This document shows, in pieces, positions 31,352-33,175 of a DNA stretch of 64,000 nucleotides. The position numbers were made by a program, and so were the translations under genes. Location of the stretch: NCBI GenBank assembly GCA_041489255.1, contig JBGPQV010000002.1, positions 128,001 to 192,000 on the forward strand. The letters run 5' to 3'. Source of the stretch: Thermoplasmata archaeon. GTDB lineage: Archaea; Thermoplasmatota; Thermoplasmata; RBG-16-68-12; JAFNFQ01. The notes under the pieces are model-generated. The model was given only the letters and a program-made list of their open reading frames with translations, was not told the DNA's origin and did no database searches. Every line of letters starts with the position of its first letter. The first letter of the stretch is position 1.

Positions 31352-31366
31352 CGAAAATGCTTATAC
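31352..31366 (+). promoter_or_regulatory. Archaeal BRE/TATA promoter for tRNA-Gln and glnS
   Basis: CGAAAATGCTTATAC, about 25 nt upstream of the tRNA 5' end. Confidence 0.6.
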
Positions 31367-31389
31367 GGAGACGCGGCTTGACGGAACGT

Positions 31390-31460
31390 AGCCCCGTGGT
31401 GTAATGGCAGCATAAGAGGCTCTGGACCTCTTGGCATCGGTTCGAATCCGGTCGGGGCTG
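31390..31460 (+). tRNA. tRNA-Gln(CUG), 71 nt, CCA not encoded
   Basis: AGCCCCG/CGGGGCT acceptor, AGAGG-CTCTGGA-CCTCT anticodon arm, ATCGG-TTCGAAT-CCGGT T arm, discriminator G. Confidence 0.93.
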
Positions 31461-31489
31461 CCTGTCCATCCGAGATTCGGTGAAGAAGA

Positions 31490-33175
31490 ATGCATTCCGA
31501 GGAGGCGCCCCGAGACTTCATCAGGAAGATCATCGACGAGCACAACAGGAGCGGACGCTTCAACGGCCGTGTGCACACCCGCTTCCCGCCCGAGCCCAAC
31601 GGCTACCTTCACATAGGCCACGCCAAGGCGATCTGTCTCAACTACGGCATCGCCAAAGAGTACGGCGGGCTCTTCAACCTCAGATTCGACGACACGAACC
31701 CCCTCAAGGAGGAGGAAGACTACGTCCACGCGCAAATTGAGGACGTCAAGTGGCTAGGGGCGGACTGGGGCGACAGGCTCTACTTCGCGTCCAACTACTT
31801 CGAGCAGATGTACGACTATGCAGTGCAGCTGGTCAAGGCGGGAAGGGCGTACGTGGATGACCTTTCGGCGGATGAGATACACGACTACCGCGGCACGCTC
31901 ACGACGCCGGGGCGGGAGAGTCCCCATCGGAATCGCTCGATCGAAGAGAACCTAGACCTCTTCAAGCGCATGCGCGAAGGCGAGTTCTCCGACGGCGAGA
32001 GAGTCCTCCGCGCGAAGATAGACATGGCCCACCCGAACCTGAACATGCGCGACCCGGTCATGTACAGGATACTTCACGCAAAGCATCACAACACAGGGGA
32101 CGCATGGTGCATCTACCCCACGTACGACTGGGCGCATGGTCTTGAGGATTCGATAGAGAAGATAACGCACTCGATCTGCTCGTTGGAGTTCGAGGACCAT
32201 CGACTCCTGTACGACTGGTTCCTTGACCAGCTTGGAGTCTATCATCCCCAGCAGATCGAGTTCGCCCGCCTCAACATGAGCTACACGGTGATGAGCAAGA
32301 GGTTGCTTGTGAAGATGGTCAAAGAAGGAGTCGTGGATGGCTGGGACGACCCGCGACTATTGACCGTGAGAGGGCTGAGACGACGCGGATACCCGCCAAC
32401 CGCCATCCGCACGTTCCTCGAAAGGGTCGGGGTGGCCAAAGTCAACAGCGTCGTGGAGATCGAGTTTCTGGAACACTGCCTCAGAGAGGAACTGAACAAG
32501 ACCGCGCCCCGCTACATGGGCGTTCTCAGACCACTCCGCGTCGTGATAGAGAACTGCCCGGAGGGCAAGACGGAGGAGTTCGATGCGGTGAACAACCCTG
32601 AGGACCCGGCTGCGGGGAAGAGAAAAGTGCCTTTCTCCCGCATCATATACATCGAGCAGGAGGATTTCATGGAGAACCCTCCGTCAAAGTACTTCAGGCT
32701 ATCCCCGGGAAGGGAGGTCCGCCTGCGCTACGCCTATTTCATCACCTGCAAAGAGGCGGTGAAGGAGAACGGGAAAGTCACGGAACTAAGGTGCACGGTT
32801 GATCCGGAAACGCGCGGCGGAAATGCGCCGGATGGAAGGAAGGTGAAATCCACCCTGCACTGGGTTTCTGCCGCCCACGCAATCGACGCGGAAGTACGCC
32901 TGTACGACAAGCTGTTCACCGTCCCGGATCCACTCGCTCAGGAAGGCAAGGAATTCAAGGACCTTATCAACCCGAAATCGAAGGACGTTATTGCAGCCTG
33001 CAAGGCCGAGCCGGCCGTGCGGAGCCTCAAGCCATACGACCGGTTCCAGTTCGAGCGGATGGGATACTTCTGCGTGGACCCGGACACCACGAGCGACAGA
33101 CTGGTGCTGAACAGGACCGCCACCCTGCGGGACTCCTGGACCAAGATTCGAGAAGGCGGGGAAGTTACGAAGTGA
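31490..33175 (+). CDS. glnS: Glutaminyl-tRNA synthetase, bacterial type
   Basis: [82 protein letters not shown]; RBS GGTGA. Confidence 0.93.

Follow-up and report, generated by a model that had tools for sequence, protein, structure and literature searches.

What is a gene for a bacterial-type glutaminyl-tRNA synthetase (GlnRS) doing beside a tRNA-Gln gene on an archaeal chromosome, and could it be the only means by which its host makes Gln-tRNA(Gln)? The question is raised by glnS and the tRNA-Gln(CUG) gene ahead of it in a 64,000-nucleotide stretch of a Thermoplasmata archaeon (GCA_041489255.1, contig JBGPQV010000002.1; hereafter the window, meaning the whole stretch analysed). Archaea are said to lack GlnRS in three reviews and surveys (PMC5388404, 2016; PMC7373986, 2020; PMC9499178, 2022), and a fourth has the enzyme lacking in 'almost all archaea' (PMC8762117, 2022). 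Our answer, to which we give a probability of roughly 85%, is that the window encodes a working GlnRS of bacterial descent that would be the sole route to Gln-tRNA(Gln) in this organism, the route through the GatDE amidotransferase having been lost. The elements at the centre of this reading are the following.

31352..31366, plus strand: promoter-like element made up of CGAAAA (31352-31357) and CTTATAC (31360-31366), its centre some 27 nt ahead of the tRNA 5' end
31390..31460, plus strand: tRNA-Gln(CUG) of the 'short' type, 71 nt (Rfam tRNA model 59.7 bits, gathering 29)
31479..31483, plus strand: GGTGA, 6 nt ahead of the glnS ATG
31490..33175, plus strand: glnS, ATG start, predicted GlnRS of 561 aa, bacterial type, no YqeY tail

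By every sequence test run, 31490-33175 is confirmed as encoding a GlnRS. The product scores 692.4 bits on the GlnRS equivalog TIGR00440 (cut-off 425.8) over model positions 1-524 of 524, and it stays below the cut-off on every glutamyl-tRNA synthetase (GluRS) model tested, including the archaeal TIGR00463 (gltX_arch; 350.8 against 401.75) and NF003169 (309.3 against 516). Its top score, 821.7 bits, is on NF011291, a GlnRS/YqeY fusion model matched at positions 12-560 of 769; the protein ends at residue 561 where the match has reached 560 of 769, and therefore carries no YqeY domain. Pfam recovers the class I E/Q catalytic domain (PF00749) and the anticodon-binding beta-barrels (PF03950, 102.8 bits; PF20974, 87.6 bits). 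The best-matching solved structures are bacterial GlnRS, those of P. aeruginosa (5bnz, 687.7 bits) and E. coli (653.8 bits), at about 60% identity and in alignments that run end to end, from residue 3-7 to residue 551-555; eukaryotic GlnRS and GluRS structures scored lower. The preliminary description had called a 561-residue class I synthetase with GlnRS features, and the open reading frame, the motifs it quoted (HIGH among them, in the translation) and the beta-barrel domains were all recovered.

Individual residues were compared in an alignment that set E. coli GlnS beside 75 GlnRS from bacteria and 36 from archaea; the GluRS of this genome served as an outgroup, aligned only approximately. 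The window protein carries the E. coli residue at R30, P32, E34, D66, Y211, H215, S227, C229, F233, D235 and Q255, and also at R341, R402, R410, R412 and Q517, with HIGH at residues 41-44 (E. coli 40-43) and VMSKR at 267-271 (E. coli 267-271). We take R30, Y211, S227, C229, F233 and Q255, following the Perona laboratory's work, to be the glutamine-pocket residues that separate GlnRS from GluRS, with H215 also in the pocket, while R341, R402, R410, R412 and Q517 are presumably the anticodon-contact residues of the E. coli enzyme. Conservation is complete (36 of 36 archaeal rows) at Y211, H215, S227, C229, F233 and Q255; R30 and the HIGH positions 40, 41 and 43 are kept in 35 rows, the remaining one being gapped; and within VMSKR the S, K and R occur in all 36, M in 35 and V in 31. 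Columns 211, 227, 229, 233 and 255 read L, V, R, L and F in the genome's own GluRS, so the earlier claim of a Cys in place of the glutamate-binding Arg of GluRS holds at column 229. From these features we infer the activity and specificity of a GlnRS.

GluRS and GlnRS being closely related, the protein might have another job, either as a tRNA-Gln-specific GluRS like GluRS2 of Helicobacter or as a tRNA-modifying enzyme like GluQRS, models of which it matches weakly and over only the first ~120 residues. We consider such a paralogue very improbable. It is contradicted by the equivalog score together with the failure on every GluRS model, by the C where the own GluRS has R alongside all the checked E. 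coli pocket residues, and by the full length with both beta-barrel anticodon domains; moreover, an enzyme acting like GluRS2 would depend on an amidotransferase, which the genome was not found to encode. Curated models, solved structures, pocket residues and the trees described below all place the protein with GlnRS and not with archaeal GluRS, which was the grouping that had been left to check.

The window corresponds to C2:128001-192000, on a contig of 255 kb, in a 2.74-Mb genome of 41 contigs whose completeness is 96.5% and whose contamination is 2.7%. A bacterial glnS fragment could in principle have been joined to archaeal DNA by assembly or binning: outside the archaea, the nearest relatives are bacterial (62-69% identity), and public unitigs are interrupted within glnS, near 31.6, 32.05 and 32.25 kb, at conserved motifs. 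This explanation is practically refuted. The loose ends at the breaks resemble other GlnRS genes of the metagenome, and in one public sediment run, which may be the source sample, a 33.9-kb contig spans 27500-31603 with 0 differences, joining lysS to the start of glnS, and an 8.3-kb contig spans 32246-35500; among the listed pieces, all of them contigs, none covers the whole of 27500-35500. Shorter pieces of the stretch occur in three further runs, produced by other studies, and no RNA run is among those listed as containing it. The separately assembled genome G001, of the same genus, has the same gene order and is collinear over 22095-30436 (89.4% identity), 30432-33133 (83.9%) and 34011-38751. 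The GC content across glnS (0.57-0.59) is that of the flanks, the flanking tRNA has an archaeal tRNA-Gln acceptor stem, and GlnRS is not confined to this genome, being present in 17 of the 41 examined from the order and in 75 of the 401 examined from the phylum, the sampled ones forming a clade of their own. The gene belongs to the archaeal chromosome, contamination is excluded, and the contig is not chimeric here, a possibility that the preliminary description had named as refuting its call.

In a scan for relatives limited to one genome per species, 596 were obtained among 600 candidate stretches and the best 80 were kept; these 80 comprise three archaeal-labelled sequences (74-75% identity) and 77 bacterial ones (62-69%) from many phyla. 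A FastTree phylogeny of 115 rows (the window protein, 12 from the same order, 20 from the same phylum, the three named archaeal, the 77 bacterial, including two that received no taxonomic label, E. coli, and the own GluRS as outgroup) places all 36 Thermoplasmatota rows in one clade (support 97), with the same-order rows as a subclade (support 99). With the GluRS outgroup and near-duplicate rows taken out, a quick IQ-TREE search under LG+C20+F+G4 (86 rows) divides 27 archaeal from 59 bacterial rows by a single branch (SH-aLRT 96). The branch to the window protein is long, 0.32-0.41 against 0.1-0.2 in its neighbours. The archaeal clade lies near the base of the sampled bacteria, which were sampled by likeness to the query, and no bacterial donor is identifiable from the two trees, whose sample is without eukaryotic GlnRS. 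We take the protein for a GlnRS of bacterial descent, probably inherited within Thermoplasmatota, where it forms one clade apart from the bacteria. The preliminary description had proposed an acquired and domesticated system. The acquisition stands, but it should be seen as old and phylum-wide (75 of 401 genomes, one clade) and not as a recent event in this genome.

We then asked which route to Gln-tRNA(Gln) the genome encodes. Profile searches of its contigs gave no match to gatE, gatB or gatA, and tblastn with the GatE of two relatives gave no hit at 1e-8. An archaeal GluRS is present at C12:68552-70201 (541.2 bits, cut-off 401.75), as are AsnRS (410.3 bits, cut-off 342.6) and GlnA (508.2 bits), and a second tRNA-Gln gene, UUG and classical-bodied, lies unlinked to glnS at C7:18518-18592. 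The gatD profile reached only 39.1 bits, over model positions 82-132, on a stretch at C14:25801-25953 inside a 135-aa ORF (L003:1429-1836, minus strand); it is a fragment of an asparaginase N-terminal domain whose 48-52 residues are 52% identical to the GatD of two relatives. The genes that flank gatD in G022 match C14:33135-36465, ~7 kb from this stretch, which is a possible gatD remnant. Since no GatDE, GatA or GatB was found and both AsnRS and GlnRS are present, the genome appears to use direct charging for Asn and Gln. The search that had been recommended thus ended with gatD and gatE not found and with an archaeal gltX and a second tRNA-Gln in hand.

To place this result, 40 further genomes of the order were examined, 41 with this one, under family codes (f1, f2 and so on); mcrA occurs in none of the 41, which rules out methanogen identity for the order. 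GlnRS exceeds its cut-off in 17 of the 41, gatE in 27 and gatD in 28. All eight genomes of f1 (this genome and G001) and f2 (six genomes) have GlnRS, and none has gatD or gatE over the cut-off. Both routes occur in f3 (eight genomes), f5 (one) and two f7 genomes (G022 and G033), with the f3 members G031 and G034 keeping GlnRS only as fragments under the cut-off. No GlnRS was found in f4, f6 and the other eight f7 genomes, 20 of these 22 having gatD and/or gatE over the cut-off; the two exceptions are G004, without either gene, and G036, with fragments of both only.

The wider sample, 401 Thermoplasmatota genomes drawn evenly from the phylum, has GlnRS over the cut-off in 75 genomes of many families (35 of 53 in f29, 14 of 24 in f32, and others). 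None appears among the listed genomes of families f8-f17, of the same class, many of them closed or nearly closed. At E<=1e-20, gatE was found in 364 of the 401, and it is without a match in 30 of 75 GlnRS-positive genomes against 7 of 326 GlnRS-negative ones; the genomes are kin and not independent, so these proportions describe a pattern and are no statistic. At least eight family codes (f1, f19, f29, f30, f48, f49, f50 and f52) include gatE-negative genomes, which indicates several losses, and the data point to GatDE having been lost several times in the phylum. In f29 we also observed a second GlxRS of ~577 aa that scores ~340 bits on the GlnRS model (G404:C101, G251:C29, G440:C26, G305:C59, G260:C26), well over what the archaeal GluRS of the present order reach (200-250 bits); it is presumably the GluRS of these genomes, unusually GlnRS-like.

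It could still be that GlnRS merely supplements an indirect route that this organism retains, gatD and gatE being simply unassembled in a genome that is 96.5% complete; gatE is found in 45 of the 75 GlnRS-positive genomes of the phylum, so coexistence of the two routes is common. We regard this as unlikely, given the absence of both genes from all eight f1 and f2 genomes, the excess of gatE-negative genomes among GlnRS carriers (30 of 75 against 7 of 326), the wrecked classical tRNA-Gln(CUG) in the window and the GatD-like scrap in its short ORF. Of the two roles that the preliminary description had offered, replacement of GatDE fits this genome and supplementation fits the relatives that carry both routes.

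The tRNA genes add a further line of evidence. A tRNA-Gln gene lies beside glnS at 30 of 35 archaeal loci (some of the five blanks being at contig ends) against 4 of 77 bacterial loci. The archaeal glnS-linked copies all share the acceptor stem AGCCCCG/CGGGGCU (A1:U72, G2:C71, C3:G70) and are therefore native, not imported. Bacterial import of the tRNA is ruled out, the four bacterial glnS-adjacent genes having U1:A72 and other acceptor stems. The window tRNA-Gln(CUG), at 31390-31462 by ARAGORN, has a 7-nt D loop, a 4-nt variable loop, A1:U72, G2:C71, C3:G70 and the discriminator G73 by the same program, and a copy 100% identical to it precedes glnS in G001. With the tRNA end at 31460, as in Rfam, 29 nt separate the tRNA from the ATG, the spacing given earlier.

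Within the order two types of tRNA-Gln are found. The short type, 71 nt long with a T stem of its own, has a D loop of 7 nt and a variable loop of 4 nt; it immediately precedes glnS in all eight GlnRS-only genomes and in nine of the 11 both-route genomes; in G034 it is present with the glnS fragment on another contig, and in G005 the upstream side is cut by a contig end. The classical type is 73 nt long, with a D loop of 9 nt and a variable loop of 5 nt, and often contains introns, because of which ARAGORN mislabels several of these genes. From GlnRS-less genomes only the classical type was recovered, with a tRNA call in 35 of 37 fetched stretches and A73 in 35 of 35. Both-route genomes retain a classical CUG gene (10 of 11, mostly just after glnS) and a classical UUG gene (11 of 11). 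In f2 the CUG and UUG genes on either side of glnS are both of the short type, and no classical gene came to light; of twelve 1-mismatch pattern hits there, three were fetched and none proved to be a tRNA. Within this genus, G73 is found in the short CUG gene and in the classical-bodied UUG gene alike; all other members of the order are A73. These censuses relied on a 15-nt pattern in draft genomes and can miss genes.

Ten genomes of f29, which belongs to a different class, were checked in the same way. Both tRNA-Gln genes flanking glnS are G73 there; the five gatE-positive genomes also have A73 classical-type genes elsewhere, some with odd anticodon loops, and the five gatE-negative ones have G73 genes only, the one exception being an A73 gene of G437 whose acceptor and T stems contain mismatches. 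As a general mark of GatDE loss G73 was rejected: f2, without GatDE, has A73, and gatE-positive f29 genomes have G73 beside glnS.

Several peculiar tRNA-Gln genes were met along the way. The classical tRNA-Gln(CUG) just after glnS in f3 has a D-loop intron of ~30 nt at a non-canonical position (L006:3193-3294, L016:3192-3293, L019:4777-4878). Five tRNA-Gln(CUG) genes of f4 (L172, L176, L178, L204 and L205) apparently have two introns, in the D loop and after position 37, and are wrongly labelled Glu, Ser or Phe by ARAGORN. The odd loops of f29 belong to A73 genes with tRNA-Gln bodies, L223 (G257), L218 (G053) and L221 and L131:1343-1415 (G199), all from gatE-positive genomes; they include a 9-nt loop CTCTTTGGA, one that is read as CUU, and CTTAGA, a loop of 6 nt. 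Such genes may be in decay, or their tRNAs may have an unusual reading.

The distribution of the two types invites a tentative proposal, which we rate at somewhat less than even odds: GlnRS with its own tRNA-Gln set and GluRS/GatDE with the classical A73 set may exist side by side as partly insulated pairs. In this order the set served by GlnRS would be marked by the short D loop together with the variable loop of 4 nt, and in f29 and in this genus by the bacterial-like G73. The classical tRNAs would then decay or be converted once GatDE had been lost. If true, such pairs would be natural stages in the swapping of decoding pathways, as well as a natural near-orthogonal synthetase/tRNA pair.

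Returning to the reading of GlnRS as the sole route, we envisage the following sequence. GlnA would supply free glutamine, which GlnRS would attach directly both to the tRNA-Gln(CUG) encoded next to glnS and to the tRNA-Gln(UUG) encoded elsewhere in the genome, and the tRNA and glnS would be co-transcribed from the promoter-like box. The ancestral route, with a non-discriminating GluRS acting first and the GatDE amidotransferase second, would have been lost; the resident GluRS would no longer mischarge tRNA-Gln, and the classical tRNA and gatD would have decayed after the switch to GlnRS. Several points weigh against this reading. The 41-contig assembly misses ~3.5% of marker genes, and at 96.5% completeness the absence of gatD and gatE means 'not found'. 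The cross-tabulation of GlnRS with gatE was made by hand and eye from two long listings. Most glnS-linked tRNAs in the order retain the archaeal A73, and the tRNAs here deviate from what we take to be the identity rules of E. coli GlnRS at 3:70 (C:G here), 37 and 38, which makes their charging by a bacterial-type enzyme an assumption.

Around the cassette the window holds these further features.

28814..30424, plus strand: class I LysRS of archaeal type (TIGR00467 306 bits, cut-off 147.55)
30415..30516, plus strand: decayed 'classical' tRNA-Gln(CUG) remnant with a D-loop intron, overlapping the end of lysS
30615..31273, plus strand: VapB-like (RHH) and VapC-like (PIN) pair (PF22513 21.5 bits, cut-off 27 not reached; PF01850 50.3 bits)
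33984..34481, plus strand: zinc-ferredoxin-like gene of Thermoplasmatales type (best match NF041165, 243.6 bits, below cut-off 280)

The remnant has lost its 5' acceptor and D arm, and its T stem and 3' acceptor are mutated; ARAGORN makes no tRNA call on it, nor does Rfam at E<=1. It can nevertheless be aligned to a better-kept copy in G001 (L168), which has C72 facing A1, and to the classical tRNA-Gln(CUG) beside glnS in G003 and G022. The VapB/VapC-like toxin-antitoxin pair is located between this remnant and the live tRNA-Gln. A GfcR/PRT-like gene lies upstream, with LysRS, and a small GTPase gene downstream, with the ferredoxin-like gene. The flanks had been described as archaeal on the strength of lysS and the zinc ferredoxin; the first holds, whereas the second, although a Thermoplasmatales model is its best match, remains below the cut-off. 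The TATA box and GGTGA reported before are indeed present: CGAAAA/CTTATAC is a putative BRE/TATA promoter and GGTGA a putative Shine-Dalgarno site, roles assigned from sequence. A/T-rich boxes stand at similar distances ahead of the glnS-linked tRNA genes of relatives, and the open frame of glnS extends only two codons upstream of its ATG.

Two further differences from G001 were seen nearby. The segment 33211-33888, with an ORF of 225 aa that matches no family and is predicted to include a membrane stretch, is missing from the otherwise collinear G001, which in turn has ~3 kb extra between the GTPase gene and tRNA-Leu. In the window the tRNA-Leu(UAG) gene, of 86 nt, occupies 36021-36106 on the minus strand.

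The gene class itself is already known and named by public annotation models. An archaeal GlnRS may already have been reported by Furukawa et al. in 2017 (J Mol Evol 84:51). Searches of the literature for 'archaeal GlnRS' gave no match, and those combining GlnRS with Thermoplasmat* gave no report of the gene; neither the Thermoplasmatota GlnRS clade nor its tRNA cassette nor the linked GatDE losses were found in the literature searched, which did not extend to supplementary tables. GlnRS transfer 'to Archaea and Bacteria' is asserted, with credit to the 2017 work, in PMC8879553, and a Pyrodictiaceae genome lists a 'GlnRS' with an amidotransferase EC number, apparently a labelling slip (PMC13140500). 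PMC9499178 explains the absence of GlnRS from archaea by an odd archaeal tRNA-Gln identity set (A1:U72, A73) that would block a transferred enzyme. A bacterial-type GlnRS spread across Thermoplasmatota families, beside tRNAs that keep A1:U72 and with repeated loss of GatDE, would remove that supposed identity barrier. It makes testable which tRNA features admit the enzyme, how GluRS stops mischarging after GatDE loss, and in what order the losses occurred. Genomes with both routes and distinct tRNA-Gln sets stand as natural intermediate stages, and they may provide a ready synthetase/tRNA pair for genetic-code engineering.

Among known systems, another archaeal lineage said to encode GlnRS is Heimdallarchaeia, where the gene is mentioned only as a cox-gene neighbour (bioRxiv 10.1101/2024.07.04.601786). 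The Deinococcus-type GlnRS with a YqeY tail provides the highest-scoring model (NF011291, 821.7 bits), but the window protein has no YqeY domain and the D. radiodurans structure (2hz7) scores 492.9 bits, lower than E. coli GlnRS. With the archaeal indirect route, that of a non-discriminating GluRS and GatDE, the system shares the end product, Gln-tRNA(Gln), and the same archaeal GluRS, and f3, f5 and part of f7 retain that route, with GatDE beside GlnRS; it differs in that gatE was not found here, gatD is at most a scrap of ~50 residues, and Gln would be attached directly. The closest likeness is to bacterial GlnRS (E. coli GlnS, PDB 1GTR/1QTQ/1O0B; P. aeruginosa, 5BNZ), which the protein resembles in length, domain order, motifs, pocket and anticodon-contact residues. 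Unlike that enzyme, it has an archaeal host and partner tRNAs with A1:U72 and C3:G70, where the bacterial glnS-adjacent ones have U1:A72, and its gene stands in a conserved tRNA-Gln/glnS(/tRNA-Gln) cassette, found at 30 of 35 archaeal but only 4 of 77 bacterial loci.

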